Below, in pieces: positions 57 through 64,000 of a stretch of 64,000 nucleotides of DNA. The notes beneath the pieces were generated by a model that was given only the letters and a program-made list of their open reading frames with translations, was not told the DNA's origin and did no database searches. Numbering within the stretch: position 1 is the first letter of the stretch; each line of letters opens with the position of its first letter. A program made the position numbers and the translations under genes. This DNA is from a virus (taxonomy: Duplodnaviria; Caudoviricetes): the IMG/VR virus record IMGVR_UViG_3300037067_018433; one strand, 5' to 3'.

Positions 57-515
57 ATGATGAATCCGATCGTGATTCAGGCGTGTGCTGAGGAGTTGGA
101 GAAGCAGGCGGACCTGAGCCCCGAGCTCATCGGGCTGCTGCTGGGCGGTGCGGGGGGCGCGGGCCTGGGGTACGCGGCCACCGACGATCCTCGCAAGAAG
201 ACGCGCAACGCCATCCTGGGCGGGTTGGGCGGTGCGCTCGGTGGCGGGATCCTCGGCGGGCAGATCGGTGGCGGCGACGGCCCCGCGGCCCCCGCGGCTC
301 CGAAGCCGCCGGCGGACCCCCTGTCGATGCTGTCGACCGCCCGCGGGGCAACCGCGTCGGCGGAAGACCTGGTGCGGAAGGCGCACGAAGCCGCTCTTCG
401 GCGTGCCGAGGCCCTGCAGCAGGCGTTGGCGGGTGGCGCCCAAGGGGTAGTCGGCGGTGCCGAGGCCCTCGGTCCGGCGCTGGCCGCGCAGGCGACCGGG
501 GTTCCCATCCGCTAG
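57..515 (+). CDS. KxA-motif glycine-zipper protein (putative head-internal/ejected protein)
   Basis: EELEKQA followed by a GxxxG-rich hydrophobic hairpin similar to a segment of 1265..2746. Confidence 0.75.
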   Translation: MMNPIVIQACAEELEKQADLSPELIGLLLGGAGGAGLGYAATDDPRKKTRNAILGGLGGALGGGILGGQIGGGDGPAAPAAPKPPADPLSMLSTARGATASAEDLVRKAHEAALRRAEALQQALAGGAQGVVGGAEALGPALAAQATGVPIR

Positions 516-1268
516 ATGTCGGATACCTCGACCCAGGACCTGAGCCTGTGGCGGCAGTGGGATGCCGGAGGGCGCAAGCCTGACGACATGGAGCCGCTGC
601 TCGACAAGTTCGCGCCCTTGATCGAGAGCCACTACCGACGGTACGCCGGACACGTCAACATCCCGGACGTCGCGATCCGAGCAGACCTCGAGAACAGGTT
701 CGCGCAGGCGGTCAAGACCTACGATCCGACCAAGGGCACGCAGCTGTCGACCCACGTGTGGGGCAACCTCAAGGGGGTCCACCGGTTCGTGGTCCAGCAG
801 CAGAACATGTCCAGGATCCCCGAGAACCAGGCGTCGCGCATTGCGCAGATGACGGCCGCCGTCCACACGCTGCAAGAGGACTTCGGTCGGGTACCGGACA
901 ACGCGGTACTGGCCAGCTACATGAACTGGAGCCCGACGCAGGTGATGCGCCTGCGCAAGTCCATGCGCAAGGACCTGTCGAGCACCCAGTTCCTGGTTCC
1001 GGTGGGTGCGGTCATGCCCTCCCGCTGGGAGGCGATCAAGGCGCTGCTGCCCACCGAGTTGACCCCCAAGCAGCAGTTCGTGTTCAAGCACACGACCGGT
1101 GCGGGCGGCGCACCCATCCTCCAGGCGCAGGCCATCGCCAAGAAGCTGCACATGTCCAATGCCTCCGTCAGCAGGGCGCGAGCGGAGATCGCTGGGATCC
1201 TGGAGCGATACGGCGTGCTCACGCAGGCACCTAATGCGCCGTCCGACCCCGGGACCGAGGTGGATTGA
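516..1268 (+). CDS. Sigma-70-family (group 3/FliA-like) RNA polymerase sigma factor
   Basis: Region 2-like FAQAVKTYDPTKGTQLSTHVW, region 3-like LQEDFGRVPDNAVLASYM, region 4 HTH LTPKQQFVF...QAIAKKLHMSNASVSR. Confidence 0.8.
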   Translation: MSDTSTQDLSLWRQWDAGGRKPDDMEPLLDKFAPLIESHYRRYAGHVNIPDVAIRADLENRFAQAVKTYDPTKGTQLSTHVWGNLKGVHRFVVQQQNMSRIPENQASRIAQMTAAVHTLQEDFGRVPDNAVLASYMNWSPTQVMRLRKSMRKDLSSTQFLVPVGAVMPSRWEAIKALLPTELTPKQQFVFKHTTGAGGAPILQAQAIAKKLHMSNASVSRARAEIAGILERYGVLTQAPNAPSDPGTEVD

Positions 1269-2746
1269 TGGACGCGCCCAAGGTCGACGCGGGTCCCGAC
1301 AAGACCGTGCGGAAGACGGAGGTCGCTGGGATCCCCGTCAACATCGAGCGACCCAAGGGCGTCGTCAAGGTGTTCCCCAAGGGCTACACGCAGCTGTACA
1401 AGGTCGACTACGGATCAACTCCGTTGGCCAAGGGCGTGGATGGAGATCCCCTTGATATCTTCGTGGGCCCGGACAAGTCGTCGAAGACTGTGTTCGTGGT
1501 CGACAAGATGACGGACAAGGATCACTCGGCATTCGACGAGCACAAGGTACTGCTGGGCTTCCGGAGCAAGGGGGACGCACGGGATTGCGTGAAGTTCCAC
1601 TTGTGGGGCACCGACGGGAAGATCAAGCAGATGAGCATCGACAACTTCCTCAAGTCGATCCGAGGGGGAGTGGACAGGTTGGGGAAGCAGGCGGCCGCGT
1701 TGCCGCTGGAGCGTGGTTCCATGATCGACCCATGGCAGGTCGTCGGGTTCATGAGCGTGATGGGCGACGAGAAGACGGCGTTCTCTCTTGCCGACATCCC
1801 GCGCGAGGTCTGGGGTGGGCTGGCGGGCGGCGCGCTCGGGGGTCTTGGTGGATACGGAGCGACCTCCGACCCCCTCAACAAGAAGCGGAACACCGTACTC
1901 GGGGCGCTCGGTGGGGCGGCGGCCGGCGCCGGGCTGGCGCACCTCACGGCCCCCGACGCCAAGCCCGACCCGAAGTTCACCTCTGCCCCCGGTACCGCGT
2001 CTCCGGTCAAGCCAGGGCTCCCGGAGCAAGGCAAGCTGCCCTCTGCCCAGGTGGAGCCCACGCTGCAGCGTTCGGAGGCCGCAGTACGCCAGCAGGCGCA
2101 GCAGCAGATGACCCAGCAGGCGGTCCAGTTCTCGGCGGCCCGCGAGCGCGCCTCCCTGCTCAAGGACCAGGGGCAGGTGATGGCTCGAACCCAGGCGCTG
2201 TTGGCGCCGCGTGAGGCTCCGACCATGCCCAAGGGCGTCCCGCCGCGGAACATGGTCCTTGCTCCCGGCGGCCGGGTGATGTTCCAGCGGGTGGCCAACA
2301 GCGTGGCTCCCGGATCTCTGATGGGCAAGGCGGCGGCGTTGGCGAACGGTGGTGCGAAGCTGGACCTGCTGCGCACGAACCCGAAGCTGGCCCTGGCCAT
2401 CGGCGTGAATCTGCGGAAGCACGCGAGCGGTTGGGGGAGCCTGCTCAAGGGGCTCGGGCTGGTGGCGGGTGTCGGCGCTGCAGGCTACGGCATCCGCGAG
2501 GGGGTCGACTGGCTGGGGCGAAAGGCGGTCGACACCGCCACGCAGGGCGTCAAGGACATTACTGAGGCAATCACGCCGGGGGTCGAGCAGGTTGGCGAGC
2601 AAGGGGCCGATCTTGCGAGGAAGTACGGGCCCGGTCTGTGGGTTGACCAGAAGATGCCGTGGATCCGGGATACGCTTGCCCCTGCCAAGCCCTTGATCAA
2701 TCCCAGCACCCCGATGGGATTGTTCCCGAGCCCGGTGACCCAGTGA
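1265..2746 (+). CDS. Multidomain protein: N-terminal inorganic pyrophosphatase-like domain plus glycine-zipper segments separated by KxA sites
   Basis: IERPKG...DYG...DGDPLDIFVG...FDEHKVLLGF PPase-type motifs; KQA, KTA, KAA and KHA sites. Confidence 0.75.
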   Translation: MMDAPKVDAGPDKTVRKTEVAGIPVNIERPKGVVKVFPKGYTQLYKVDYGSTPLAKGVDGDPLDIFVGPDKSSKTVFVVDKMTDKDHSAFDEHKVLLGFRSKGDARDCVKFHLWGTDGKIKQMSIDNFLKSIRGGVDRLGKQAAALPLERGSMIDPWQVVGFMSVMGDEKTAFSLADIPREVWGGLAGGALGGLGGYGATSDPLNKKRNTVLGALGGAAAGAGLAHLTAPDAKPDPKFTSAPGTASPVKPGLPEQGKLPSAQVEPTLQRSEAAVRQQAQQQMTQQAVQFSAARERASLLKDQGQVMARTQALLAPREAPTMPKGVPPRNMVLAPGGRVMFQRVANSVAPGSLMGKAAALANGGAKLDLLRTNPKLALAIGVNLRKHASGWGSLLKGLGLVAGVGAAGYGIREGVDWLGRKAVDTATQGVKDITEAITPGVEQVGEQGADLARKYGPGLWVDQKMPWIRDTLAPAKPLINPSTPMGLFPSPVTQ

Positions 2747-8529: not shown

Positions 8530-8922
8530 GTGGGTTTGGGCGTCGAGATCCCAAGGGGCGGACTGGACGAGCTTAGCGTCGTGGCATCACGCATGGGGCT
8601 GTCCTATGGCGTGTCCGACGGCGCGTGTGCTCCAGGATCCGTCGAGAGGAACTGGCTCATCGGCACGGTGGCACGTGCGGTAGCCGAGTTCGTCCGCTAC
8701 AAGAACGCCACCAATCCACGGTCGAAGATGGTGTACAAGCGCGCACAGCTCTGGCTGTTCACCACGTACAACGGCAAGGGCCCGCCCCCCGGCAGCTTCG
8801 AGTGGTGCTGCGAGTGGTTGGATGAGGACCCAGAGATCGGTCGAGCACGCGCCCTCAGCCTGGACATAGCAGACCTACCGAAGGTGGACCACTTCAGCAG
8901 TGATCGATCGAGGCGCAAATGA
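8530..8922 (+). CDS. Hypothetical phage protein
   Basis: AQLWLF...GSFEWCCEWLDEDP motif; stop overlaps the next ATG; start uncertain. Confidence 0.6.
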   Translation: MGLGVEIPRGGLDELSVVASRMGLSYGVSDGACAPGSVERNWLIGTVARAVAEFVRYKNATNPRSKMVYKRAQLWLFTTYNGKGPPPGSFEWCCEWLDEDPEIGRARALSLDIADLPKVDHFSSDRSRRK

Positions 8923-11651
8923 CCATCGCGCGCGCCGAGGTCGACTCGGTCGTCTCCGAGCTGTTCCGCCAGCGTCGCCGGCAGTGGACTGGTATGGGCG
9001 GCGGTGGCAACCCGCACGAGACGTGGGCCGACCTACAGAGCATGGTGTCCATGGGCTTCCTGTTGGACGCGGACGCCGTGTTCACGGTGGCCCTGTGGGC
9101 GTCGGCGCAGCTGAACGCGTCCCTGGGTCAGCTGCAGACCATCGTCACGACCATGGACACGGCCGCCGCCCAGCTGTCCGCGGACACGCCCCCGGCACTG
9201 GCCGCCAGCCCGCAGCTCAACCAGGCGTCCTGGGCTCTCAACCAGGCGCTCATCACGCTCGATGGGGCTGCAGCCAGTTCCGCTTCTGGCAAGATCACCG
9301 AGGCCCGCACCAAGCTCGAGGAGTTTGCGACCGCGTCGCTGGCGCCGGTTGTCAGTCCCGGGCTAACGGGCCAGGACCAGCGGACGCCGTCCGAGGCGCG
9401 GGCGGAGCTCCAGACGCAGCTGCCTCTGCTGAGCGCCCAGCTGTCCATGGTCGAGGACGCGGTTGACGTGCTGGACGTCTTGGTGGAGGACCTGGACGTG
9501 GTCCTGCCCCCGGCTTCCGTCACGCGCTTCGTGCGTCAGGTGAAGACCGACGTGGACGCCATCCGCACTCGGTTCCTGGCGCAGGCCGAGACCGAGCGGC
9601 TGACCCAGGCGCGTACCGACCTCATCCGGCTGGCCGCCGACTGTGCGACGCTAGAGCGGTTGACGAGCGTGGTCGAGCCGACCCTGGTCCGGACCAGCGT
9701 GGCGTGCACGGCCTACGGCAGCGGCGACGGGGCGCCGGTCGTGGGCACGATCTCCGCGCCCTACGAGCTGTTGGACGGAGTCACCGACCAGCTGCGCCTC
9801 GGGTTTGACGGGGGTGTCGTCACCCAGTACAGCCTTCCCGATCAACCGAACGTGCTGTACCTGGACTTTCCGATCTCGCTGCCGGTTGGTGGGTGGTATA
9901 CGGTTCCGGGACCGGGTCCGTGGACGTTCAGGCTCTCGGTGGACGGGCGCCAGGGGGCGGCGGTCAGCATCGCCGCAGGTATGTGGACGGTAGCCGCGGT
10001 CCTTGGGGCGGTCGGCGCGGTGTTCGGCGCCATCCCGGAGAACCCGCCGCTGTCCCCCTTCCTGTTGGTCAACTCGTCCTTGGTCATCGGTCCGCCGCCT
10101 CCGATCGTGACCCTCTACTCCACGGTTCGGATGCTCTACAACGTCGGTGTTCCGCTGCCTCCCAACCCGGGCATTGGCGCGTACATAGAGATCACCGGTG
10201 ACGCCGCGTTGATGAACGCCTTCGGGTTCATGGGGCAGGATCTGGACAACCCGCTGGTGAAGACCGAGCGCGTCTACTGGAGGCCGGTCGAGCGCCGGGA
10301 GGTTACGGCGTTCCTTCAGCGCCAGACGTACGCAGGCTCCCAGTTTGGGGAGCGCGTGCGGATGTACCCCACCTCGCGCATCGTGACTTCCGGGAAGCGC
10401 GGGTACATCACGCCGGCAGCGCCGACGACGTTCGGGTGCTTCAACTACAGCGGTACCGGCGTGTGGTACCCGGACATCACGCGCTTGACGCTGTCCGGCG
10501 ACGATCTGGCGCTCGTCCAGGTGGGGGACCGCGTGGTGTTCTCCGGGGTCGTGGCCGTCTACCAGGTGACGCGCATCCGCGAGGATGGTGTGGAGTTAGC
10601 GTGGGTCTCGGGGGCCGTGGCAGCCGCCGGCAGCTACGCCACCACCGTCTCGCCACCCGTGGGCTCCGTCACCGCGGGCATGACCCTGACGTTCGAGGAT
10701 CGTGGTCAACAGGTCTACGCCCGGATCTCCGGTGTTTCGTACGACGCCAACGGCCGCCTTCTCCTGGCGCTTGACCGTCGGCCGTCAACCCTTCCGTACG
10801 GCGCCACCTACTCCTTGTCGTACACAGTGATCAGTGATGTGCTGACCATCCAGTCGGCCAACAACGGAACCACTGGGCGCACGGAGGTCTCGGCGTTCAT
10901 CGGGGCTGATGCCAGCCCGGCACTGGGTCTGGCGTCGGGTACCGACGTGTCCACGGTCGACCAGCTGTACGGGGCCACCGCGGACTTCACGACCGCCGGC
11001 GTGCAGATCGGCGACTACGTGTACCTCGGAGGCGCGCTCCTGGCGGAGGTCCAGGAGTTGGTAAGCAGCAAGGTCGTACGCGTAGATCGACAGCTGTTGG
11101 GGACGGTCTCCGGGACCATGGAGTTCCGTCATCGCCTCTACCAGCTGTACGAGGACCTGCGGCTCACGTTCCCGGTCCTAGACACGGCGCCCACGATCGA
11201 CGATATCCAGCTGCAGGTGAACGAGTGCCTGCGCGCGCCGCAAACGCTGCGGGCTGCCGCCGTTCTGCGCACCGAGCTGGCGGCGTTGACGGTAGTGATC
11301 ACTACACTGCAAGCGGCCATCACCAGCTTCCGCGCCGAGTTCGGCACGCCCAGTGCCGTCATGCGAGATTGCCGTGACGCGCTCGAGGAGTCAGGGGCCG
11401 ACCGTGCGCTGAACCTGCTGTCCACCGGACGGTTGGCCGACCTGTTCTCGGCCAGCACCGACGACTCCTCCTACAGCCGACGGCTCATGCGCTCGATGCG
11501 CAAGGTGAGCCGTACGACGTTGGGTACGTCGGTGTTCGCGCAGTCCATTCGCCAGGAAGCCGACGCCCTGGCGGCCGCCGATTCCCCCGACCTGGGTATC
11601 GACATCCTGGCGCAGGTGGAGACGGGCGGGCCGGGGAGCACGAAGCGATGA
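8919..11651 (+). CDS. Large tail/baseplate-associated protein
   Basis: 910 aa, helical termini around a beta-rich core; directly upstream of baseplate genes. Confidence 0.75.
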   Translation: MTIARAEVDSVVSELFRQRRRQWTGMGGGGNPHETWADLQSMVSMGFLLDADAVFTVALWASAQLNASLGQLQTIVTTMDTAAAQLSADTPPALAASPQLNQASWALNQALITLDGAAASSASGKITEARTKLEEFATASLAPVVSPGLTGQDQRTPSEARAELQTQLPLLSAQLSMVEDAVDVLDVLVEDLDVVLPPASVTRFVRQVKTDVDAIRTRFLAQAETERLTQARTDLIRLAADCATLERLTSVVEPTLVRTSVACTAYGSGDGAPVVGTISAPYELLDGVTDQLRLGFDGGVVTQYSLPDQPNVLYLDFPISLPVGGWYTVPGPGPWTFRLSVDGRQGAAVSIAAGMWTVAAVLGAVGAVFGAIPENPPLSPFLLVNSSLVIGPPPPIVTLYSTVRMLYNVGVPLPPNPGIGAYIEITGDAALMNAFGFMGQDLDNPLVKTERVYWRPVERREVTAFLQRQTYAGSQFGERVRMYPTSRIVTSGKRGYITPAAPTTFGCFNYSGTGVWYPDITRLTLSGDDLALVQVGDRVVFSGVVAVYQVTRIREDGVELAWVSGAVAAAGSYATTVSPPVGSVTAGMTLTFEDRGQQVYARISGVSYDANGRLLLALDRRPSTLPYGATYSLSYTVISDVLTIQSANNGTTGRTEVSAFIGADASPALGLASGTDVSTVDQLYGATADFTTAGVQIGDYVYLGGALLAEVQELVSSKVVRVDRQLLGTVSGTMEFRHRLYQLYEDLRLTFPVLDTAPTIDDIQLQVNECLRAPQTLRAAAVLRTELAALTVVITTLQAAITSFRAEFGTPSAVMRDCRDALEESGADRALNLLSTGRLADLFSASTDDSSYSRRLMRSMRKVSRTTLGTSVFAQSIRQEADALAAADSPDLGIDILAQVETGGPGSTKR

Positions 11652-12636: not shown

Positions 12637-15600
12637 ATGACCAGCAAGGAACTGACCTCACTGATCCTGCGCTGCGTTCGCGGCGCGTTCCCGGACGCCA
12701 ACCTGACGCAGGGGTCTACTGTCTGGACCAAGCTCATCAACCCAATACTCTCGGCCGTCGGTCCCAGCCCGCTCGAGCTGCAGACCAGGGAGTACGAGCG
12801 GGCGATCGTCCGCACGATGCACCCGTCCGTGGACATCGAGAAGGATGGGGAGGTGGACGACCTCCTGCTCAAGCCCTCGGAATCGTTGCTGGCTCCTTTC
12901 GGCAAGGAGATCACGACGATCAAGCAGCGCCAGACCATCCGCGACCTCAGCGTGCACACGCTCGAGTCCATCTCGGATCTGGCGGCGAACTCCGGCATCA
13001 TTCCGGCCGAGGGCGGTTACGCTCAGGGCCCGGTCCGCCTGTACTTCAACGCGCCGACCGGCGAGCGCGTGACGCCCGAGACGTACATGGAGACCCCTGA
13101 CGGCCTGCGGTTCTACGCGACGGGCATCCAATCGATCACCGCCAGCCAGATGACGCTCAACCACACCGGCGACCTCTACTACTGGGACATCCGGGTGATC
13201 GCCGAGAAGCCGGGGGTGACGTACAACGTGGAGGCAGGGCAGGTCAGCCGTGCCCCGACGCTGCCGCGCGTCATCCGGGTGTCCAACCTCTCGCGATTCG
13301 GTGGTGGTCTGCAACGCGACTCGGTGGAAGACGTCGCGGCGAAGATCGAGAACTTCCCCTGCACCCAGTCCATCGGCACGCGCCGCGGGACGTCGGCCAC
13401 GGTGCTGGCCAACCTGGCTGGCGTTCGGGTGCTCGAGACGGTGGGCATGGGCGATCCGCTCATGCAGCGGGACATCATCGTCGGCGGCGAGATGAAGGCT
13501 GAGGCCTTGGCCTACCCGGCGGGCGGCGCGTTCGCGTCGGTGGCCGGCGCGTTCGGCGAAGGCACGCCGGATGAGGATGCCCACATCTACACGCGGTGGT
13601 TCACCGATGCCACGACCCCCGCCGACTTCACGGCGGCCTTCGGGCTCAGCAGCGGGCCGGTCGACGGCTACTACCTCATCGCCTGCTGGTACGACGCCGG
13701 CCTCAAGACGACCCACTGGCTCTACGAGAAGATCATCCGCGTCATCTCCCAGCGGTGTGTGGAGATCGAGAACCAGGTCATTCCAACGGACCTGGACAAC
13801 ATCTACTGGTCGGTGGTGCCCGCACAGCTGACGCTGTCCGAGATCCCGGGCGGCATCCTGTGGCCGGACACGCCGGACGGCGAGGTGGTCATCCGCAGTG
13901 ACGTGGTGCACGTCGGCGGCCAGACCGACGTCTTCCTGATGGGGACGACGACGGAGGACGCGACCACCGACCTGGCGTCGTTGACCGACGAGGACCTGTT
14001 GGGCTACGGGGTCATGGCGCAGCCGCTCAACACCGTCTACTACGTCATGGTCGACGACATGGACGAGATCACCACGTTGGGTCCGGTGGACGCGCGGTTG
14101 GCGGGCGCTGGGCTGTACGACGTGAACCTGGAATGGGCCACGGTCGACCTGACGGGTATCAGCGCGGGGAACGTGTTCCGGTCTCCGGCAGACATGGAGC
14201 AGTACCGGGTCCTGGCGTTGAGGAAGTCGGGCGTCGGCGGCGCGTTCGGCGCCGGGAAGCTGGTCCTCCTGCTCGATGGGGACACAGGGGGGGACGTCAA
14301 TCCGGCGTACTTGATCAAGCGACGGCCGATGGTCGACCTGCGCAACGCGTGCTTCCGCCTCAACAGCGCCGTCGGTACCTCGGGGTACTACCGGGTGATC
14401 TACGACTACGAGGGTGCTGGTGGAGACCCGGCTCACCCGGTCATCGGCTACGCGGGCTGTCGGTACAGCGTGTACCTCTCGACGCCCATGACGGCTACGC
14501 TGGCGGATGAGCCGTGGACGTTCAGCGACGACACGGACATCAACCTGTCGGACCCGAAGCAGCTGCGGGTCGACGGCACGACGCTGACCACGTTCGCGGG
14601 CAGCGACACGGTGTTCGACCCCGGCCCTCCCGGGACCCCGATGAACTTCAACCTCTACGGTGTGGTGGCCGGCGACATCCTGCGGATCGATGCGGGAGTC
14701 GACGCCGGGGACTACGTGCTGCGAGAGGACCCGTTCGGGGCCGGGGGCTCGTTCCTCCGTCTCTCCACGATCCTGCACGCCAACCTGAACGTCCGCTACC
14801 GCATCTTCCGGCCGCTCACGCCGGTAGAGCTGCCGCTGTTGGCCGCCAGCAAGCTGTCGCTGTTGGACGCCGGCGGCACGCTGCTCGGTGTCGACGTTCC
14901 GTACGGCGAGGCGCTCGGTGCGTACAGCGAGGTGTTCACGAACCTGGGGCGCGGGGAGCGGTACAAGACCGGCAGCGCGATCGTTGGGATCTGCACCGAG
15001 GGCGGCATTCCGCTGGCCACAGGCGCGCAGCTCCACAACCCAAGCACAGCGCCGATGTGCTTGTGGGTGTGGCACGAACGCCTGGGGTACCAGAGCTGGC
15101 GAAACTGGAACCCGGCGGACGGCTACCTCACCGATGGCAACGGCGGGTACTACGTCCCCGAGGCCTACGTCTACAACATCAACGTCAACTACGATCTGCA
15201 GGCGGATGCGCCTGTTGGGTGGACCGACTTCCTCATCTACCTCAACGGCTTGTCGCCCTACCCGTTCTGGTCGTACGTCGACGAGGTGATCAGCGGTGTG
15301 ACGTACCGGCACCTCGTCTGCCGACCGTTCGGCTCGTACCTTCAGCTGCTGGGGTTCTCTGGCGGGCTGGGGAAGCTCACGTTCCCCACAGCGTTCACGT
15401 CCGCTGACGTCGATCTGAACCTGGATATCGGGGCTTACACGAAGACGGTGGAGAGCCGCGACGTGCTGTTCGCCAATGTCGACCTGTCGGGCTTGACGTC
15501 GGTCGTCTCCCTGTCGACCCACAAGGACCTCGTGGACATCACGTCCGGCCCCAACGTCGGCGTGAAGGACATGGTGTTGAGCACGAAGGTCGTGAACTCG

Positions 15601-17148
15601 ACCCGTGTTCGCCTCGTTGGGTACTACGCACTCGTTCCGGGGATCACCACTAGCGCACGGATCGGGTTGGCATCCACGGGCGTCGCGCGCGTGTACTTCA
15701 AGGACGCCACGGACTTCGAGTGCGACTTCGCCTCGTCCTTCGTCCCGGAGTCGTCCACCGACCTCGTCTTCCGCCCCGATCCATCCAACCGTCGTATTGG
15801 TTTGGGGTATGTCGCAGCGCAGCCGGCTCACTCCGTCCTCATTCCTGGGTACCCGACGACGGAGAACCCGGACAACGGGTACGTCACGGCGGGCAGCGCG
15901 TGGTACGCCGAGCTCCACGGAAAGATCACCGGAACCGAGTCGGATTTCTGGGCGCTCGGCGTTCGACCGGGGGACTTGGTGGAGTGCAGCTTCCGCGACA
16001 TCATCACGACACGCGTGGCGTGGCCTGTAGGCCCGCTGGGCGCCAACGAGGTCCTGACGATCACGTCGACCGACGGTACGGTGACAACCGCGACGTTCAC
16101 CGCGGGCAGCACGTACACCGGAGCACAGGCCGCCTCCCTCATCAACGTGGCGTTCGGAGACACCGTCGCGTACTACAACGACATGCTGGACACCAAGATC
16201 CACCTGCGCTGGCAGGAGGAGATCACCATTGGTGGGAGCGCGTTGGGCGGCGGCGGTGTGCTGGGTGCCGGTGTCCCGCCGACGAACAACTGGTCGTACT
16301 CCCGCGGCACGTACAAGATCGCGGGCATCGGTCTGGACGGCGGGACCAACGTGAACAGCCGGTTGTACGTCGAGGCGGCGGGAAGCGGGAGCGCACCAAG
16401 CGCCTCCGACATCGCCACCTGCCGCATGCAGTACCGCGTCATCCGCCCGACGCAGCAGCGGTGGAGCTCCATGGAGATGGAGGCGAATGTCGGGGTGGGC
16501 GGGTTGTACTACGTCGACGTCGAGCTGATCGGTCACGGAGTCGGCGACTCATACAACCTGGGTGAGGACGAGAAGATGACGGTGTCCGGTACGCGGACCC
16601 GCGGCTACCGGTTGTCCAGCACCAATCCCGAGACCGCATTCTCCACGGCCGAGGAAGTGTGGGCGCACATCGACAACTACTTCCAGCCGACGTCGGTGGC
16701 CGAGGACTCGCCGCCGTCCGATCAGACGGTGTTCGGCAGCGGCTTCCGGCTGTACTACGAGCGGTCCCCACTGGTGTCGAGCGCCCAGGCGCTGCTCAAC
16801 AGCCGCGAGGAGCGGGACAACAACCAATCCGTGTTGGCCCGCCACCTCTTCCCGTACTACGTGAACTGCGCCGTGGCCTACGCCGGCGGCGCGCTCGAGT
16901 CCGTGGTGCTACCGGAGATCGAGAACCTCATCACGGGTCGCGACCCCAACGAGCCGCTGGACGTGTCGGACATCATCGGGGTCGTCACCGGCTTGGGCGC
17001 GGACCACGTGGACACGCCCATTGGGCTGGCCGTGTTGCGGCATCAGAAGGATCGATCGCTGGACGTGTTGGTGGGCATGGACCGGGTGGAGACCCCGCGG
17101 CTGGCGGGGTTCCTGCCCGGGAACATCACGGTGACGCGTCGCGCCTAG
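12637..17148 (+). CDS. Baseplate J-like wedge protein with a large central insertion
   Basis: N-terminal AQGPVRLYF...IAEKPGVTYNV...VSNLSRFGGG and C-terminal LDVSDII J-like patterns. Confidence 0.7.
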   Translation: MTSKELTSLILRCVRGAFPDANLTQGSTVWTKLINPILSAVGPSPLELQTREYERAIVRTMHPSVDIEKDGEVDDLLLKPSESLLAPFGKEITTIKQRQTIRDLSVHTLESISDLAANSGIIPAEGGYAQGPVRLYFNAPTGERVTPETYMETPDGLRFYATGIQSITASQMTLNHTGDLYYWDIRVIAEKPGVTYNVEAGQVSRAPTLPRVIRVSNLSRFGGGLQRDSVEDVAAKIENFPCTQSIGTRRGTSATVLANLAGVRVLETVGMGDPLMQRDIIVGGEMKAEALAYPAGGAFASVAGAFGEGTPDEDAHIYTRWFTDATTPADFTAAFGLSSGPVDGYYLIACWYDAGLKTTHWLYEKIIRVISQRCVEIENQVIPTDLDNIYWSVVPAQLTLSEIPGGILWPDTPDGEVVIRSDVVHVGGQTDVFLMGTTTEDATTDLASLTDEDLLGYGVMAQPLNTVYYVMVDDMDEITTLGPVDARLAGAGLYDVNLEWATVDLTGISAGNVFRSPADMEQYRVLALRKSGVGGAFGAGKLVLLLDGDTGGDVNPAYLIKRRPMVDLRNACFRLNSAVGTSGYYRVIYDYEGAGGDPAHPVIGYAGCRYSVYLSTPMTATLADEPWTFSDDTDINLSDPKQLRVDGTTLTTFAGSDTVFDPGPPGTPMNFNLYGVVAGDILRIDAGVDAGDYVLREDPFGAGGSFLRLSTILHANLNVRYRIFRPLTPVELPLLAASKLSLLDAGGTLLGVDVPYGEALGAYSEVFTNLGRGERYKTGSAIVGICTEGGIPLATGAQLHNPSTAPMCLWVWHERLGYQSWRNWNPADGYLTDGNGGYYVPEAYVYNINVNYDLQADAPVGWTDFLIYLNGLSPYPFWSYVDEVISGVTYRHLVCRPFGSYLQLLGFSGGLGKLTFPTAFTSADVDLNLDIGAYTKTVESRDVLFANVDLSGLTSVVSLSTHKDLVDITSGPNVGVKDMVLSTKVVNSTRVRLVGYYALVPGITTSARIGLASTGVARVYFKDATDFECDFASSFVPESSTDLVFRPDPSNRRIGLGYVAAQPAHSVLIPGYPTTENPDNGYVTAGSAWYAELHGKITGTESDFWALGVRPGDLVECSFRDIITTRVAWPVGPLGANEVLTITSTDGTVTTATFTAGSTYTGAQAASLINVAFGDTVAYYNDMLDTKIHLRWQEEITIGGSALGGGGVLGAGVPPTNNWSYSRGTYKIAGIGLDGGTNVNSRLYVEAAGSGSAPSASDIATCRMQYRVIRPTQQRWSSMEMEANVGVGGLYYVDVELIGHGVGDSYNLGEDEKMTVSGTRTRGYRLSSTNPETAFSTAEEVWAHIDNYFQPTSVAEDSPPSDQTVFGSGFRLYYERSPLVSSAQALLNSREERDNNQSVLARHLFPYYVNCAVAYAGGALESVVLPEIENLITGRDPNEPLDVSDIIGVVTGLGADHVDTPIGLAVLRHQKDRSLDVLVGMDRVETPRLAGFLPGNITVTRRA

Positions 17149-17458: not shown

Positions 17459-17487
17459 AGTGTCCCACGGCCGGGCGGTGTAGTCAA
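17459..17487 (-). promoter_or_regulatory. Sigma70-like promoter giving a leaderless mRNA
   Basis: TTGACT-N17-GACACT (with extended TG)-N5-ATG(17453). Confidence 0.5.
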
Positions 17488-20400
17488 TGATCCCCAAGAC
17501 ACCCGAGTGGCCGACCCTGGCGTTCACCCCCGGGCTCAACATCGGGGCCACGGGGTTTGGGTGGGTCGTTGCCGGTACCGAGGGCCTCGAGTGGGCGGCC
17601 AACCCAGCCGGTGCGTTCGGCGTCGACTACGGTCCGTCCCTCGGTCCCGGGGGACCTGACACGGAGATCTTCTGCCTGACGGCAGCCGCGTTCCCGGGCA
17701 ACGTCCGGATGCTGTCCGTGCCCAACGCCGCGCTCGAGCCGCTGGTCGACGGATGGGTGGCGGAGGTCGTGGTCGAGGGCCCGGTTCCCGCGGTCGAAGC
17801 ACCGTCGGTCACCATTGGGTGCGCGGGTACGACGGGCGCGTTTGCCATCGGGGGGATGGGCAAGGTGGAGTTTGCTCCCGGCCCCAACATCTGGCAGGTC
17901 TCCATCTGGGAGTTCGGTACCGGGTGGGTTCTCCTGAACATCCTGACCCTCGCCTACCCGTTCTCCGTCAAGATCGTGCGGAACGCCGGGGAGACGGCGT
18001 ACAGGCTGTACGTCGACGGCGTGTACCAGGGCGAGCGGGAAGAGGGAAACCTGGCGGCCAACCTCGACTGGCTGTTCATGGGAAACCCACGCGTCGGCGT
18101 GATGTGCGAGTCAACCAACGTCGGCGCCCTGTTCCACATCACGTCGTGGCTGGTGGGGCCCGCCGGCATCCGGCCCGTCGCCAACGCTGGTCCCGACAAG
18201 GTCCTGCCCCTCAACAGGATCCTCGGGTTTGATGGTGGAGCCAGCTACGACCCAGACGACGGGGACCTGACGTACGCCTGGAAGCTGGTCCGCGCACCGT
18301 CGGGCAGCGTGCACGTGTACGAAGGAACAGGTGCCATCGGCGGCAGTTCCATCACCTTCGTGTCTGCGGGCATCACCACCGAAGTGGCAGTTGGCGACAT
18401 CCTGCTCATCGAAGGTGAGGAGTACGAGATCACTGGGACGCTCCCGCCCAACACCGTGTACGTGGACCGGGCACTGCCGGCCGGGTACGCCGGGCCGTTC
18501 GTGGTCGCGCTCCAATCGCTGGTCGTCGGGCCCACGACGCGGTTCTTCGCGTTTGCCCCCGACTTGGTCGGGTTGTACGTGGCGCGGTTGGTGGTCGTGG
18601 ACGACGCGGGGCTCTACAGCTCCGCCGACCTGGCTGTGGCCAACGTCGTGGGGTCCACGGTGCCCATGCGCGTGCCTCTGGACATGGGTTTCCTGTGGAG
18701 CTACCTGGCTGACTTCTGGCGCACGGTAGAGAACCGGGAGTGGGCGACGGACGTGTGGGTCGCTCTGGCGCGCATCGTAGGCAGTCAGCTCCAGGATCTG
18801 TGGAACATCGACTTCGACAAGAGCCTGCAAACGACGCAGAACGTCGTGATGCGCCGGTGGCTGGAATACCCGCCGCGCTTGGATTTCAACAAGGCGGACG
18901 CCCCCGTATTCGTCAGCCGCCTTCGCTCGATGCTCGGCGACACGCGCTACACGCAGGCCATGATCGACGGGTTGATCCTGCCCTTCGACTTCACCTTCAC
19001 CCTGACGTTCTACCTGTCGACTGGTGCCGTCGTGGTTCCGATCACTGCGCCGATGAACACCGTGGTCAAGGACGTACCGGCGGTGCTCAACGCGGGGTTC
19101 GCGGCGGCCGGCTACCCCAACGTGCACTTCCAGTTCCGGGAGATCGAGGAAGAGCTCCCCACCGTGCCGATGGTTGCGCAGTTCAAGATGACGTGCGTGT
19201 CTCCGGACTGCTACACCGAGATCGGGGTGGTCCCCGCGTTCTTCACGGCCACCTCCAACGTGTTCCGCGGGACGTACGGATTGGTGGTCGGCGACCGCAC
19301 CGTCCGCCTCAGCCCCGGGCCGACGTTCCCCGCTCCCGACGGAGACCTGGATCTCGATGGTATCGTCAAGGTGGGGGACATCCTCAACCTCGGCGGGCGC
19401 TCGTTCAACATCGTGGCCGTCTCGAACTACCGGACGGTGGACCCGACCACCGGGCTCCCGGCGTGGCCGTACTACAAGTACCTCGAGGTCGAGGTGGACG
19501 GGGATCTTCCGGCGGGCATCTACTACTGGGCCATCCCGTCCTACTGGAAGACGGTGGTGACCGACTGGAAGGCCGAAGGGCTCACGCCGGGCGACCGCGT
19601 GTACTTCGACCGGCGCCCGGTCACCGACCCGAGCGGTCCGTCTACGCTGGTGGCCGTCGACTGCTACGGGGCGGGCGCAGACAAGTTGTGCACGACGGCC
19701 GCCGCCATGTTCTACGCGGACTACGTCTACACGCCGTCCTACGCCCACCGCTACTTCTACCTGCCGACGGATGCTTCCGTGCTGAGCGTTCCGACGCTCC
19801 AGGAGGCTCCGGAGAGCCCGACGTGGATCATGCAGGAGTTCCTGCACTACATCGTCGACGAGCGGCGCGACGGACGGTACGTCGTGCTCAACCACCGCGA
19901 GGAGCCCGTCAACGAGATGCTGACGGGCTGGGTGAGGGATCGTACGGGTCCGGTGGATTCCGCCGAGTTCCTTCCCGAACAGCTGTGGGCAGAGATCACG
20001 CACGTCGACAACCGCGACACCATCGAGGCCAACTTCGGGCGTAGGGTTGCTGCGTGGGTCGCGGACTACGCGGCGGCCGACAGCAACTACCTGTCCATCG
20101 TGACCGGGTTGTGGTTGGTCTACAGCCAGGGGCCGACGCCGCTGAACATCGAGCGCGCGGTGGGCATCATCAGCAGTGTGCCGTACGCCGAAGCCGCCGG
20201 CACCATCCTGGACCTGGTGCAGGACTTCCTGCCGGGCCGCACCTTCATGTTGATCCGGGATACCGACCAGTCGTCCGTCGTCCGCAGCTACGTGTTCCCT
20301 ACCGGCAGCGGGCCGTCCATCAACCCGGCGACCGGCGTGGCGTACACCATCGGCGATAGCGTCCCGCGGTTCGCGCTGTTGGTGAGCACCCAGTTGTACT

Positions 20401-39268: not shown

Positions 39269-39279
39269 TCCCCACCATG

Positions 39280-40686: not shown

Positions 40687-40722
40687 TTGCCTTCGGTCCA
40701 TACTGCGCGGTACACTGAGTTC
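40687..40722 (+). promoter_or_regulatory. Sigma70-like promoter, leaderless
   Basis: TTGCCT-N18-TACACT-GAGTTC-ATG. Confidence 0.65.
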
Positions 40723-41208
40723 ATGGAACGAGCCGAAGAGGTTGCCCAGTACCTTCAGGGTTCCCTGCTCGAACGACTCAGGAAGATCGCGGCTGACGAA
40801 GCGGCTGCGTCGACCAAGGTGGCGGCCGCTCCCCCTCCGACTCCGCCTCACGACCCTCCCCCTCTTCCGCTGATGAAGAAGGTGGCGCACCTGTCTTCAT
40901 CCGAGCGTGAAGCACGCCGCGCCCACGGCGCTACCGCCGTCAACATGCTGGCGGACATGCTGTACGGACCGCGGGTCGGTCAGGAGCAGAAGCTCGCGGC
41001 GGCCATCGCCGGCGAGACGTTCAAGGTGGCGGCGAGGGACCTGGCGGATTGGGCTCCTCGATCCAACCCCGTCATCCAGAGCGTGCTGGCGCAGGCGAAT
41101 GTGAAGACGGCGTCAGCCGGTGACCGGGAGACCGCCGAGTACGTCGGGCGCCTGTTGGCCCACGGGCTGTACGCCCGGCACCTGGAGGCGACGGGCGCGT
41201 GCCGATAA
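40723..41208 (+). CDS. KxA-repeat protein
   Basis: 6 of 7 Lys are in K-x-A. Confidence 0.75.
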   Translation: MERAEEVAQYLQGSLLERLRKIAADEAAASTKVAAAPPPTPPHDPPPLPLMKKVAHLSSSEREARRAHGATAVNMLADMLYGPRVGQEQKLAAAIAGETFKVAARDLADWAPRSNPVIQSVLAQANVKTASAGDRETAEYVGRLLAHGLYARHLEATGACR

Positions 41209-41228: not shown

Positions 41229-41738
41229 ATGGCCGACGACGCGTTAGTGCTGGCGACCAGGGTGGTTCGCGCCCTGCGTCAGAAGCAGGAAAAGAAGACG
41301 GAGAAGAAGAAGATGCCGACCAAGACCGCCGAGGAGCTGAACCTGCTGGGGGCCATCGCGTTCGGCCGGGCACTCGCCGAGAGGGATCTCGAGCCGTTCA
41401 AGCTGGCGTACCTGAAGGGCACGACCGTCAAGACGGCGGCCGCCGCAGCGGAGTGGCTCAAGGAGCTCGAGCAGCTGACGAAGAACGCGGACGCCGCGGA
41501 CGTCGCACGCGAGCACCCGTACCTGTCGACGGTCCCGGGGCCGAGAACGGCTGTCGTGAAGGGGCAGGGGCAGGAGCGCGAGACGCACAAGAAGCGCGCG
41601 TCTCTGGGTTCCGCCTACGATACGTTCGCGCAGACGCTGCCCGAGGACCAGCGTGAGTCGTTCTTCAAGATCGCGGAGAAGGTCAACGACGACGTCATTC
41701 GAGCGGCGGCCGTAGTGCTGCCGGCGATGGGGCGCTGA
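41229..41738 (+). CDS. KxA-repeat protein
   Basis: KTA, KLA, KTA, KNA, KRA, KIA; start could be 41313. Confidence 0.7.
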   Translation: MADDALVLATRVVRALRQKQEKKTEKKKMPTKTAEELNLLGAIAFGRALAERDLEPFKLAYLKGTTVKTAAAAAEWLKELEQLTKNADAADVAREHPYLSTVPGPRTAVVKGQGQERETHKKRASLGSAYDTFAQTLPEDQRESFFKIAEKVNDDVIRAAAVVLPAMGR

Positions 41739-59853: not shown

Positions 59854-61089
59854 ATGGAGACGTTGGACATCCAGGATGACCACGGTGCGCTGCTGGCGCT
59901 TGTCGGCGACGCGATCCCCGAGAACATCAAGCAGGCGAGCATCACCGACCTGGACGTCAACCAGGCACCGGACGACCTGTTCGCCCTGGTCATCGAGCGT
60001 GCGGGGCAGCCGCCGCTCCGGAAGTTCGCGTGCAGCGACGGGCCTACCACCTACGTTTCGGCGCTGTACCTCACGCAGACCTACCGGCACCTGACGCCGG
60101 CCGCGGTCAAGACCGCAGCGAAGAGCCTCCTGCAGGCGGCGGACGTCTACCGCGTGACGCTGCCCGCGGATGTGGCGAAGTTGGCGGCGACCGGTGGCCT
60201 GTCGCAGTTCGAGGAGCCCGAGACCAAGGTCGCGGGCCTGGACGACATGCTGAAGGTGATCCGCGAGCGGCGGCAGGAGAACAAGCTGCGGAAGACCGCC
60301 GACCTGACGGGAACCGAGCTCACTCCTGTGGGCACCCCACGTCCACCAACGGACGCCGTCAAGAAGCTGGCGGCCGTCGACAACCACGTATCGTGGTCCG
60401 GACCGACGGTCGAAGAGATCGAGCCGCCCCTTCGCCTCGTCGAGCTCGGCGTCAAGACCGCCGGTGGCAACACCTATCCTCTGGACAAGGTCCGTGACCT
60501 GATGGACCTCGAGCGCGCGTTCGCCCACAACATCACGGCCATCCCCGTGGACGACCGGGTGAAGGTGGCGTGTGCGGTGGTCGAGCGCGAGCAGGACATG
60601 GGCCTCCCGTCGGGCGCCCCCGTGCTCAAGTACGCGGGCAAGAGCTTCCGTTCCGCCCGTGAGCTGGAGCAGGCGCTGTGGTCACGCGTCACCATGGGCA
60701 AGCGCGCGCACAAGGACACCACCGGCTACAACAAGCTGGCGGCGATCAAAGACCCCCAGGAGTACGCCGAGAAGCTGGCGGCCGTCGACCGCTCCATCGG
60801 CCTGGATCGGGAGTGGGACCGCGGGCTCGAGGACCCGTGGGCCGCGACGCTGTCCGCGAAGAAGACCGCCGAGGTCATCTACAACCAGAACGGGGTGTTC
60901 GTCTCCGACCACCAGCTGGAGCGCATGGCCGCCAAGGAACCGAAGAAGGTGCTGTGCGCGATCCTCGACGCCGACATGGTGGAGGAATTCATCAAGGACC
61001 CGGTCGGTGTCTTCCGGTCGATGCCCGAGCCGATGAAGCAGTCCATTGGGCGTCTGGCCAACGACCCGCTGTGGCGGGCTGATCCGTAG
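59854..61089 (+). CDS. KxA-repeat protein (putative scaffold/inner-head protein)
   Basis: 14 of 28 Lys are in K-x-A (hand count). Confidence 0.8.
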   Translation: METLDIQDDHGALLALVGDAIPENIKQASITDLDVNQAPDDLFALVIERAGQPPLRKFACSDGPTTYVSALYLTQTYRHLTPAAVKTAAKSLLQAADVYRVTLPADVAKLAATGGLSQFEEPETKVAGLDDMLKVIRERRQENKLRKTADLTGTELTPVGTPRPPTDAVKKLAAVDNHVSWSGPTVEEIEPPLRLVELGVKTAGGNTYPLDKVRDLMDLERAFAHNITAIPVDDRVKVACAVVEREQDMGLPSGAPVLKYAGKSFRSARELEQALWSRVTMGKRAHKDTTGYNKLAAIKDPQEYAEKLAAVDRSIGLDREWDRGLEDPWAATLSAKKTAEVIYNQNGVFVSDHQLERMAAKEPKKVLCAILDADMVEEFIKDPVGVFRSMPEPMKQSIGRLANDPLWRADP

Positions 61090-61166: not shown

Positions 61167-62243
61167 ATGGCAACGAAGCTCGACAGTCTGCTCAAGCGCA
61201 CCGCGCGCTCCTCGCACATCCTCGACAACTGCCAGCGGGGGGTGCAGGGGGAAATCAACCAGCTCTGGCAGGAGCTCGACCACCTCGACCAGGTCATCGA
61301 GGGGCACGTCGGCTTCCCCGAGATCGACCGGCTGTCCGTCAGCACCATCAGCGCCGGTGCCGGCGCCACCGCCGTGCTGGTCGAGGGCCGCAACTTCATC
61401 CCCACGGGCTGGAAGCGCGGGATGGTCAACATCAACCCCGGCGTGAACATGGGCATCGACTGGTACGCGGCCCAGCCGGGGAGCGACGGCAACCGTCTGC
61501 GCATCGTCTACGTGAAGGGCGGCGCGGGTCTGGGCGTGGCCTACAACCCGGCCAACAACACGGCGACCGTGACGCTGGCGGCCGGTGGTTCGACCGCGAA
61601 CGCCGTCATCGCGGCGGTCCAGGCGACGGCCGCGGTCTACGCCCAGGTCAATGGGGTTCTCCAGTACGGCCACAGCGGTGCGGGCGTCATCAACGTGGCG
61701 CAGGCTTCCACCGCGATCGTCGGCGGTACGGGCACCGCGCTGCGCTGCGCGGCGCTCACCGTCGACCCGGGCGGCGCCAACAACGCCGTTCTGTACACGG
61801 CACGCGTTCCGGGAACCCCCGGCAACAGCATCACCGTCGCGTACACGGTGGGCGTCGTCGGTGCGGCCCCCGTGGTCACCGTGACCGGTCAGCGCATCAG
61901 CGTGGCCATCGACGCCGGCGTCACGACGGCCAACGCCGTGATCCTGGCGGTCAACAACCACACGACGGCCCGCGGCCTGGTCCACGCCAGCCGCGTGTAT
62001 GGCGACACGGGCGCCGGGACCATCCCGGGTCTCATGGCCGCTGCCGCACTGACCAACGGCGCGGACGGCCAGGGGCTGCGCGTCGAGGTCGGTGGTCTGG
62101 CGGGCGTGCTCTACAACGTCACCGACACCACGTTCAACTTCGACGTGGGAGCGCTGGCCGAGCAGGTGAACACGGAGCTCACCACGCTCCGCGTCGACAT
62201 CTGCGGGCACGGCTTCCGCATCCCGATGGCGGTCGTCGCGTAG
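61167..62243 (+). CDS. Virion protein with two sheath-like beta repeats
   Basis: YAAQPGSDGNRLRIVY / YTARVPGTPGNSITVAY and TANAVI.AV repeats. Confidence 0.7.
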   Translation: MATKLDSLLKRTARSSHILDNCQRGVQGEINQLWQELDHLDQVIEGHVGFPEIDRLSVSTISAGAGATAVLVEGRNFIPTGWKRGMVNINPGVNMGIDWYAAQPGSDGNRLRIVYVKGGAGLGVAYNPANNTATVTLAAGGSTANAVIAAVQATAAVYAQVNGVLQYGHSGAGVINVAQASTAIVGGTGTALRCAALTVDPGGANNAVLYTARVPGTPGNSITVAYTVGVVGAAPVVTVTGQRISVAIDAGVTTANAVILAVNNHTTARGLVHASRVYGDTGAGTIPGLMAAAALTNGADGQGLRVEVGGLAGVLYNVTDTTFNFDVGALAEQVNTELTTLRVDICGHGFRIPMAVVA

Positions 62244-62286: not shown

Positions 62287-63084
62287 ATGGCGGGTCATGT
62301 AGCTACCGATCTCCCCCCTCGTGTAGCGCTGACCCGCCAATCCACCTTCTCCTCGGCTTACGTGCACCCTCTGGCCGCCGACCGGCTGCTTGAGGAGAAG
62401 TACGGGGTCGAGTGGTTGCTCTGGGAACCCGAGACGTTGTGGACCACCATCACCAAGGACTTCGCACTGCACGCCGAGTTGAGCAGGACGGTGCGCGCCG
62501 GACTGCAGGCGGTGCGCACGTTGCACAACACCGATCAGTTCTTCGAGGAGTGGCAGGTCACCAACTGGGTCACCCAGGCGCTAGACGGTACGCTCCCGGA
62601 CTTCGACTCGCTGCAGGATGCCGAACCCGGCCAGCTCATGCACGCCGTGTACTGCGCGAAGCTGTCCCGCGGCAACATGCCGTACGCTGACGAAGTCCAG
62701 AAGTGGATGGCCTGCGAGTTTCTGGACGCCGGGCTGCTCTACGCGCCTCCCCCACTCGAGTTCATCCAGGACGAGATCGCGATGATGGAGGCGCACTGTC
62801 GCAAGTGTGGGAACGTGGAGTGGTCCGAGGGGCTCACCGAGTGCCCCAACTGCGGCGCCGGTCGCGACCAGCTGGACATATTGGCCCGTCACCAGTGGAC
62901 CATGGTCAAGGACATGTGGTCCTTGATCAAGAACAAGGTAGCGAACAGCGTGTCGTTGGCCGAGGACATGATGGGCGTGCAGATGGCCCGGCTGCTGGCG
63001 GCCAGGGATCATCTGAACGACCGCGTCTCTCTGCTGAACACACAACTCAAGGAGCTGGACTTTGGACCTGTGCCCACGCCATAA
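62287..63084 (+). CDS. Hypothetical protein with Zn ribbon
   Basis: CRKC...CPNC. Confidence 0.75.
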   Translation: MAGHVATDLPPRVALTRQSTFSSAYVHPLAADRLLEEKYGVEWLLWEPETLWTTITKDFALHAELSRTVRAGLQAVRTLHNTDQFFEEWQVTNWVTQALDGTLPDFDSLQDAEPGQLMHAVYCAKLSRGNMPYADEVQKWMACEFLDAGLLYAPPPLEFIQDEIAMMEAHCRKCGNVEWSEGLTECPNCGAGRDQLDILARHQWTMVKDMWSLIKNKVANSVSLAEDMMGVQMARLLAARDHLNDRVSLLNTQLKELDFGPVPTP

Positions 63085-64000
63085 CCGGGAGCTGCTCGCG
63101 GGCTTCTGCGACGTCTTCGTCAAGAGGGCGGCGATCGGGCATGTCGGTCTGGGTACGGAGCCGACACCCATCCAGCACTGGCACCGGAAGTTTGCCGCGC
63201 TGCCGGAGGATGAGCAGCTGAAGCTGTCGGCGTTTGCATCGATCATCGCCCCCGTGCTGTACAAGCAGGCGGGCGCCGCGCAAAGTGCTCTGCGCGCGGT
63301 TGGCTCGCTGGACGATGTGGCGCCGGCGGTGCGCTCCGTCGAGCGTGCGGCACCCGCACTCCGTGTTCTTGAAGGTGGTGGGGAGGCCGCGGGATACGTC
63401 CGGCCGCGGGTCATGGTGGACATGAACGCCCCGCCCTCCGGTGTCCCGTTCAACGCGCTCCCGCCGCCTCCAACAACGCCCGCACCATCAGTGCTCCAGT
63501 CCTCGCTCTCCAACGCGGACCTTCCAGGAACTCCGATCCCCTCCGGCGGCGCTTCCGTTGGTGCTGTGCCCCCGGTCCCCACGACCCCGGGTCTTCCTTC
63601 CTGGGCGAACCGCGCGCTCGGTTCGTACAAGGGGATGAAGCCCTGGCAGAAGGGCATGTTCGCGTTTGGTGTGGGCATGCCGCTGTACCAGTACAGTCAG
63701 GGGCAGATCGGTCCTGGGGAGTTGGCGGCGGGCATCGGGGGCAGCGTGCTCACCATGGGTATGGGCATGCCGATGCAGCTCGCGGGGTCCCTCGGCGCCC
63801 CGATGTTGGCTGGCCGTGTGATCGACCCGGCCCTTGGTTGGCGCCCCATGGAGCAGCGGTTGCAGGAAGCGCAGCAATCGGGCCAGCAACAGATGCTGTC
63901 CGCTGTCCAACAGCAGATGGGCGGGTATCAGATCCCACAGTACGCACCCGGTGGCTACCAGTTCAGTGCCAACGGTCTGGCGATGTCCGGTCCCCAGGGC
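63062..64000 (+). CDS. KxA-motif Gly/Pro-rich protein (3'-partial)
   Basis: AAGGAG + TTG; GFCDVFVKRAA, LYKQAG; frame open to the window end. Confidence 0.7.
   Translation, partial: MDLCPRHNRELLAGFCDVFVKRAAIGHVGLGTEPTPIQHWHRKFAALPEDEQLKLSAFASIIAPVLYKQAGAAQSALRAVGSLDDVAPAVRSVERAAPALRVLEGGGEAAGYVRPRVMVDMNAPPSGVPFNALPPPPTTPAPSVLQSSLSNADLPGTPIPSGGASVGAVPPVPTTPGLPSWANRALGSYKGMKPWQKGMFAFGVGMPLYQYSQGQIGPGELAAGIGGSVLTMGMGMPMQLAGSLGAPMLAGRVIDPALGWRPMEQRLQEAQQSGQQQMLSAVQQQMGGYQIPQYAPGGYQFSANGLAMSGPQG

Follow-up and report, generated by a model that had tools for sequence, protein, structure and literature searches.

The 64,000-nucleotide stretch of DNA analysed here (the window; IMG/VR record IMGVR_UViG_3300037067_018433) comes from an uncultured tailed phage of ~204 kb (203,683 bases on the record carrying one window protein), and it is GC-rich (66%) and Ala-rich. 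Two of its proteins, and possibly a third, carry the tripeptide Lys-x-Ala (K-x-A) more often than their own Ala content predicts. From sequence comparison and by analogy with known prohead proteases, we consider it likely that K-x-A is the recognition motif, and probably the cleavage motif, of the head-maturation protease in a large clade of uncultured ~180–200-kb phages, to which the window's phage belongs. The fuller form of the motif is [L/F/M]-[E/V]-K-[T/L/V]-A-[S/A/G]. The motif is specific for Lys and for one offset, is under selection, is confined to conserved families of the head module and brackets a domain of the T4 gp21/herpesvirus-assemblin fold. A first-pass annotation of the window had proposed that K-x-A is a head-protease code ending in Ala; comparison with related genomes strongly favours this idea, but most of the window proteins listed under it are not enriched.

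K-x-A Enrichment in the Window

We called 64 genes in the window with a self-trained codon model and compared, for each protein, the probability of Ala at position +2 given Lys with the protein's own Ala fraction. The proteins of main concern are as follows.

59854..61089, + strand: 411-aa protein of family OG1 with 14 K-x-A sites, the strongest of the window's predicted protease substrates
40687..41208 (start probably 40723; 40873 in the database gene call), + strand: small Ala-rich protein without an assigned family, predicted substrate
41229..41738, + strand: protein of 169 aa, 6 of its 17 Lys in K-x-A, marginal as a candidate substrate
63062..64000, + strand: truncated open reading frame (ORF) with 3 K-x-A among 7 Lys, weak candidate

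The 59854–61089 protein has K-x-A at 14 of its 28 lysines, whereas 3.41 are expected (P = 1.2×10−6, binomial test), and the count given in the first-pass annotation thus survives correction for Ala content. None of 200,000 shuffles reaches 14 sites, and when all 400 residue pairs at offset +2 are ranked, K.A comes first. The enrichment is limited to this offset (14 vs. 3.4 expected), offset +1 being empty (0 vs. 3.4). It is also evident that the signal depends on Lys: Arg-x-Ala occurs 3 times with 3.0 expected, and neither E-to-A nor the other residue pairs tested at +2 are enriched. In the 40687–41208 protein, 6 of 7 lysines lie in K-x-A (1.4 expected, P = 3–4×10−4), as had been claimed from a hand count, and the number is the same when the start is taken at 40723. 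Its homologues keep the K-x-A richness with partly different sites (7 of 9 lysines in P0015, 76% identical; 4 of 5 in P0017, 33% identical). The six sites reported for 41229–41738 are present, but their enrichment is marginal (6 of 17 lysines, P = 0.049) and unremarkable among 64 tests; the sole homologue of this protein, P0019, has 5 of 13 lysines in the motif (P = 0.07) and shares three of the sites. For the truncated protein at the window's end (63062–end), 3 of 7 lysines give P = 0.049, which is lost on correction for 64 tests. All three of its sites fall within residues 1–70, and the sequence beyond is rich in Pro, Gly and Gln.

K-x-A had also been placed at apparent domain boundaries in seven proteins (57–515, 1265–2746, 30909–31832, 31822–33231, 33233–33508, 39277–40686 and 63062–end). 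Pooled, these contain 17 sites with 14.5 expected (P = 0.29), which is no departure from chance. All remaining window proteins pooled show no enrichment (76 K-x-A vs. 74.2 expected), in agreement with the earlier view that sites in tail, baseplate and replication proteins are incidental. A matrix of flanking residues, trained on the enriched families of the relatives described below, places 11 of 100 window sites above the 95% background level, among them the site FVKRAA of 63062–end. This matrix separates real from incidental sites weakly, so that single 'domain boundary' sites are neither confirmed nor rejected by it. Two window proteins, possibly three, are therefore enriched for K-x-A, and the others named earlier are indistinguishable from chance in the Ala-corrected test; because most of the listed proteins are unenriched, their packaging and cleavage are guesswork. 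The first-pass idea that enzymes and membrane hairpins packed in the head are set free at K-x-A is likewise not supported.

Two further observations concern the distribution of the motif in the window. Five giant tail/baseplate proteins (8919–11651, 12637–17148, 17487–21908, 22681–25485 and 28367–30892, all + strand) have 3 K-x-A with 7.9 expected (P = 0.046), a weak hint that their sequences avoid the motif. A 310-aa protein on the − strand (38254–39186), without a Pfam match, has 6 of 20 lysines in K-x-A (P = 0.013), and four of these six sites are in its C-terminal 55 residues.

K-x-A in Five Related Genomes

Five whole contigs of 177–198 kb (G1–G5) were used as relatives; CheckV estimates 100% completeness for four and 92% for one, and two have terminal repeats. 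Their genes were called and clustered with those of the window, and each of the 66 orthogroups with members in three genomes or more was tested. Seven of the 66 are enriched for K-x-A (P from 3×10−20 to 6×10−4), whereas all other orthogroups pooled have 387 sites with 434 expected. The enriched families are as follows (K-x-A observed, expected).

Family of 59854–61089 (OG1): 82, 24.2
DUF5661-containing protein adjoining TerL: 60, 16.3
660–750-aa protein: 60, 20.0
Protein of ~120 aa, encoded two genes upstream of capsid: 24, 5.9
Head protease: 65, 31.7
~260-aa protein of the same block: 52, 26.4
340–490-aa protein of the same block: 34, 18.2

Five of the seven are located between TerL and the major capsid protein, both identified by PHROG matches. 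Sites of the enriched families share a context, with L/F/M at −2, E/V at −1, T/L/V at +1 and S/A at +3, which sites elsewhere lack. The first-pass annotation had noted a small residue after the motif, and this is borne out at the family level (Ser 3.4-fold and Ala 1.7-fold enriched at +3). No sequence link was detected among the seven families. Paralogy between them was considered as a cause of the signal and rejected: searched against the other enriched families, the OG1 profile finds no paralogues.

The Head Protease of the Relatives

One of the enriched families consists of 570–970-aa proteins that match PHROG 18299 'head maturation protease' (E = 7×10−8, residues ~75–240). In G1–G5 its gene is found in the interval from TerL to the capsid gene, and the proteins contain an invariant SMGC...CxIC motif as well as invariant His106 and Ser162. 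An AlphaFold2 (AF2) model of the protease domain, built from 46 sequences, has a predicted local distance difference test score (pLDDT) above 90 at residues ~40–235. It aligns best to T4 gp21 (5jbl_C; Z 9.6, root-mean-square deviation 3.0, 135 residues), followed by herpesvirus proteases (Z 8.2 for varicella-zoster virus, VZV; 5.5–7.5 for pseudorabies virus, herpes simplex virus, human cytomegalovirus, Kaposi's sarcoma-associated herpesvirus and Epstein-Barr virus: PRV, HSV, HCMV, KSHV and EBV). The modelled structure thus shows that the relatives' protease has the T4 gp21/herpesvirus-assemblin fold. Models of S78 (PF04586) and ClpP (PF00574) found no match in G1–G5, though they matched in control genomes, and PF03420 (Peptidase_S77) matched neither in G1–G5 nor in the control genomes.

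The protease family comprises 3,312 cluster representatives at E of 1×10−3 or better. Among the best 150 of these, K-x-A occurs 1594 times with 727 expected, and all 150 are above expectation. The sites are arranged around the catalytic domain: among 88 single-domain members, a site is found within 45 residues upstream of it in 84 and within 45 residues downstream in 85, whereas inside the domain K-x-A is depleted (65 vs. 91.9 expected, P = 0.002). In these 88 the sites cluster sharply ~25–30 residues ahead of the domain, at its end and 20–40 residues past it. K27 is invariant in the family, and A29, K239 and A241 are nearly so. The pLDDT falls below 50 in the segment that holds the upstream site (K27), and the downstream sites K232 and K239 are at the C-terminal edge of the domain, just before a second such segment (residues 245–268). 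The first-pass annotation had suggested looking for a prohead protease and for K-x-A in the capsid protein; both are found in the relatives (for the capsid protein, see below), but the protease of the window's phage itself presumably lies outside the window.

The protease also takes part in a fusion. In the window the InPase domain (PF18823) has a gene of its own, 1265–2746, and in G1 and G5 it forms the C-terminal part of the head protease, with K-x-A between the modules (L038:8907–11714, − strand).

Capsid Protein and Cultured Relatives

The capsid protein of the relatives has K-x-A at residues 23–27 in 5 of 5 orthologues; an example is EGKDKTA, with E as the next residue. The window has neither a DNA nor a protein match among 50,697 cultured-phage records. 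The protease family includes cultured phages, and the same arrangement is seen in Salmonella phage Arash (53% GC). There, K-x-A takes up 10 of 21 lysines in gp220, 8 of 16 in gp223 and 7 of 13 in gp225; the protease gp222 has K-x-A at K29 and K218, flanking the domain; the capsid protein gp226 has K26-E-A28; and Ser follows most of the sites. Proteins gp220–gp226 were detected in Arash virions, where coverage and spectral counts but no peptide termini were reported, the coverage of gp220–gp225 being 80–100% (PMC10585845). Bacillus phage G (31% GC) has a member of the protease family, gp19, with the same flanking sites. Mycobacterium phage Myrna has weak K-x-A enrichment in gp97, and the neighbours of the protease in Myrna and in phage G are weakly enriched too.

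The record of Myrna gp97 (L089:8872–12507, 1211 aa) gives it the name 'tape measure'. Over its N-terminal ~200 residues it is a member of the head-protease family, with the motif VSMG...CSACG, and the major head protein is encoded two genes downstream.

The 59854–61089 Protein and Its Family

A collection of 5.8 billion proteins contains 13 homologues of the 59854–61089 protein, and IMG/VR has 30 loci, most of them on contigs 120–198 kb long. All 36 homologues tested are enriched for K-x-A, 2- to 5-fold, on contigs ranging from 50 to 66% GC. In the window protein the sites are at K26, 57, 86, 109, 125, 147, 171, 201, 237, 259, 283, 294, 307 and 337, and the copies are 10–40 residues apart. An alignment of 32 OG1 sequences shows that ~15 columns carry most of the sites, with K57-F-A59 invariant and K26, K86 and K337 nearly so. 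Lysines outside the conserved-Lys columns are also enriched (156 vs. 66.3 expected), and even those present in at most 10% of the sequences show a 2-fold excess (57 vs. 28.6 expected, P = 2×10−6). The enrichment of these lineage-specific lysines indicates that selection acts on the motif itself and not just on fixed positions.

No match to the 59854–61089 protein was found in Pfam, PHROG, the PDB or named clusters, and the OG1 profile finds no match in Salmonella phage Arash, Bacillus phage G or Myrna. Its AF2 model (pLDDT 82.8) contains a beta-hairpin, helical domains and two disordered linkers (residues 120–127 and 148–170). Used in fold searches, the model retrieves nothing but uncharacterised viral proteins from BFVD, and from the PDB small helical pieces only (Z at most 5.8); a search of a protein atlas returns viral hypothetical clusters only. 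K-x-A sites in the model are found in linkers (K125, K147, K171), in strands (K57, K201) and, for several sites, about five residues into helices that start with Pro or Asp. In G1 and G3, the OG1 orthologue lies between an SF2 helicase gene and a homologue of 62362–63084, 25–30 kb from the capsid gene. The first-pass annotation had spoken of scaffolds degraded at K-x-A, and such a role is not shown for this protein: it is predicted to be a folded alpha/beta protein (pLDDT 83), and, because its orthologue is not beside the capsid gene in the relatives, we do not call it a scaffold. It is better described as the most motif-dense predicted protease substrate of the window. In G4 (L072), the orthologue is split into two overlapping ORFs on the − strand (42465–43397 and 43394–43957), both enriched for K-x-A, which could be a frameshift or a real split.

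K-x-A as a Probable Cleavage Motif and Alternative Explanations

If K-x-A is a cleavage motif, the protease would probably cut after Ala, with Lys at P3, Ala at P1 and a small residue at P1'. This placement follows by analogy from the rules L/I-x-E of T4, A/S/G-x-E of phiKZ and SPN3US and V/L-x-A|S of herpesviruses (the bar marks the cut). The 59854–61089 and 40687–41208 proteins, and perhaps the 41229–41738 protein, would be substrates that are assembled into the prohead. There, 59854–61089 would be cut into pieces of 10–40 residues like T4 gp22, if its sites are accessible, and the others would be trimmed.

The excess of K-x-A could instead be a by-product of Ala-rich amphipathic helices in a high-GC genome, or of helix-start motifs inherited within one family. 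The genome is indeed Ala-rich at 66% GC, several sites of 59854–61089 are about five residues into helices started by Pro or Asp, and ~15 conserved columns hold most OG1 sites. However, our test allows for the Ala fraction of every protein, the excess is confined to offset +2 and vanishes when Arg is counted in place of Lys, and the remaining window proteins match expectation (76 vs. 74). Moreover, the enrichment is shared by seven families without a detected sequence link, the OG1 profile having no paralogues, and extends to lineage-specific lysines; the motif is present at 31% GC in phage G and at 53% in Arash, and the K-x-A site preceding the protease domain falls within a disordered linker. 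This explanation is thus already largely refuted and seems very improbable to us. Another possibility is that nothing is cut at K-x-A and that the motif instead designates lysines for covalent modification or cross-linking (acylation, methylation or isopeptide bonds, for example) while the head is assembled. The strict requirement for Lys, with Arg unenriched, would fit, as would the fact that nearly all lysines of the 40687–41208 family are in the motif. No candidate modifying enzyme was identified, however; a pattern at a protease domain and at the capsid N-terminus has no parallel in known cross-linking systems, and a small residue at +3, as in the A|S sites of assemblin, suits a protease subsite better. 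We give modification only a very slight chance.

The motif might also be bound without being cut, as a docking or capsid-targeting signal that is read by the protease, the scaffold, the portal or the interior of the shell and recruits proteins into the prohead. The same statistics would be expected of any short linear motif that a head component recognizes, many sites of 59854–61089 are in structured elements, and Arash gp220–gp225, at 80–100% coverage in virions, are not simply removed. Yet targeting sequences in T4 are themselves removed at the protease motif. In the present family, K-x-A brackets the protease catalytic domain (84–85 of 88 members) and is depleted inside it, the upstream flank is disordered, the downstream sites are followed within a few residues by a second disordered segment, and K-x-A occurs ~25 residues from the N-terminus of the capsid protein. 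Such a layout is classic for the autoprocessing and propeptide sites of T4 gp21, phiKZ gp175 and SPN3US gp245 (PMC10052503). Docking alone is thus an unlikely explanation, and cleavage by the head protease remains the one we favour.

Several points weigh against cleavage by the head protease. Cutting is read from sequence patterns, and the Arash proteome provides coverage rather than peptide termini; sequence cannot distinguish a cut after Ala from a cut after Lys, nor a site that is cut from one that is merely bound. The phage's own protease is presumably outside the window, and its presence is expected from synteny with the relatives. The 59854–61089 protein is predicted to be well folded, with many sites inside helices or strands, so that a protease could reach these only in an assembly intermediate or once the protein has unfolded. 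Its gene adjoins a helicase gene and is not in the TerL–capsid block, and the flanking context of its sites is weak, with 2 of 14 above the 95th percentile of background.

Comparison with Known Prohead Proteases

In T4, the protease gp21 (MEROPS S77) cuts gp22, gp67, gp68, IPI–III, Alt, gp23 and gp24 after (L/I)-x-Glu, and gp22 is cut into small peptides. The protease fold (Z 9.6 to 5JBL) and the placement of a three-residue motif, dense in core- or scaffold-like proteins, near the capsid N-terminus and flanking the protease domain, are alike in the two systems, and 59854–61089 resembles gp22 in being heavily motif-laden. In contrast to gp22, it is away from the capsid gene and predicted to be globular. 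The putative P1 and P3 residues also differ, being Ala and Lys here and Glu and Leu/Ile in T4, so that the enriched motif ends in Ala and not in the P1 Glu of S77 proteases; moreover, the relatives' protease differs by an insert rich in Cys (SMGC...CxIC) and, in some genomes, by fusion to an InPase domain. Herpesvirus assemblin (MEROPS S21) cuts (V/L/I)-x-Ala|Ser at its release and maturation sites. It shares with the present protease the fold, the Ala at the proposed P1, the Ser or other small residue at P1' and the sites flanking the catalytic domain, whereas P3 is hydrophobic in herpesviruses and Lys here. To our knowledge, every experimentally studied giant-phage head protease of the gp21/assemblin fold cuts after Glu. 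The proteases phiKZ gp175 and SPN3US gp245 recognize S/A/G-x-Glu and A-x-E, with Ser preferred at P1' (PMC10052503). Their phages resemble those studied here in being large, with virion-associated RNA polymerase subunits, several motif copies in the propeptides of head proteins and Ser at P1' (PMC10052503), but their rule ends in Glu, and no sequence similarity to the window was detected.

A divergent clade of SH-peptidases was described in group 3 jumbo phages by Iyer et al. (2021), who gave no substrate motif (PMC7824862). It is probably the same protease clade, because Bacillus phage G gp19 is a member. Our literature search for a Lys/Ala prohead cleavage rule found no paper. Processing by a prohead protease is of a known kind, and what would be new is the Lys-x-Ala specificity. 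Whether the whole clade of more than 3,300 clusters, including Arash, phage G and cluster C mycobacteriophages, follows a Lys-x-Ala|small rule with Ala at P1 as in herpesviruses is a wider question, and we lean towards a positive answer. If this is true, Lys-x-Ala would be a new specificity within the gp21/assemblin fold, with P1 Ala and P1' Ser matching herpesvirus assemblin. The substrates, propeptides, internal head proteins, cargo and scaffold of widespread uncultured ~200-kb phages would become predictable from sequence, and anonymous proteins such as 59854–61089 would be flagged as head-associated. The rule may also govern the cutting of multi-domain packaged proteins, such as the protease–InPase fusions, into modules. 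The cultured Salmonella phage Arash would allow a direct experiment.

Layout of the Window and Other Proteins

The remaining features of the window are as follows.

57 to ~33,500, + strand: tail, baseplate and fibre block, with PHROG matches to tail-fibre and baseplate-wedge proteins
1265..2746, + strand: InPase-domain protein (PF18823 at residues 15–130, Pfam E = 1.9×10−21; PHROG 4660 'minor head protein')
36805–36879, − strand: tRNA-Pro(TGG), by ARAGORN
37011–37397, − strand: phage-encoded tmRNA, 23-residue tag ending AAA, by ARAGORN
39277–40686, + strand: LigD-like ligase, by Pfam and PHROG
44.8–59.7 kb, − strand: replication block with family A DNA polymerase, DnaB-like helicase and SF2 helicase
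59854 to window end, + strand: block with the K-x-A-rich protein

The InPase-domain protein has K-x-A at chance (5 vs. 4.4 expected), with two sites (K141, K170) directly after the InPase domain, and it matches the protease–InPase fusion of G1 by BLAST. In the ligase, the N-terminal region resembles LigD 3'-phosphoesterase (Pfam, just below threshold) and the C-terminal region is an ATP-dependent DNA ligase (PHROG 114); its homologue in G1 is placed between TerL and an enriched head-module family. The RecA-like match in the replication block is weak and below Pfam's threshold. Neither 40687–41208, 41229–41738 nor 61167–62243 has a Pfam or PHROG match. The last of these is a 358-aa ORF on the + strand, between the K-x-A-rich protein and 62362–63084, with four lysines and no K-x-A. 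We considered it as a capsid protein and rejected it for lack of a family match and of synteny: neither G1 nor G3 has a counterpart at the corresponding place, and its only match is a 241-aa protein elsewhere in G1.

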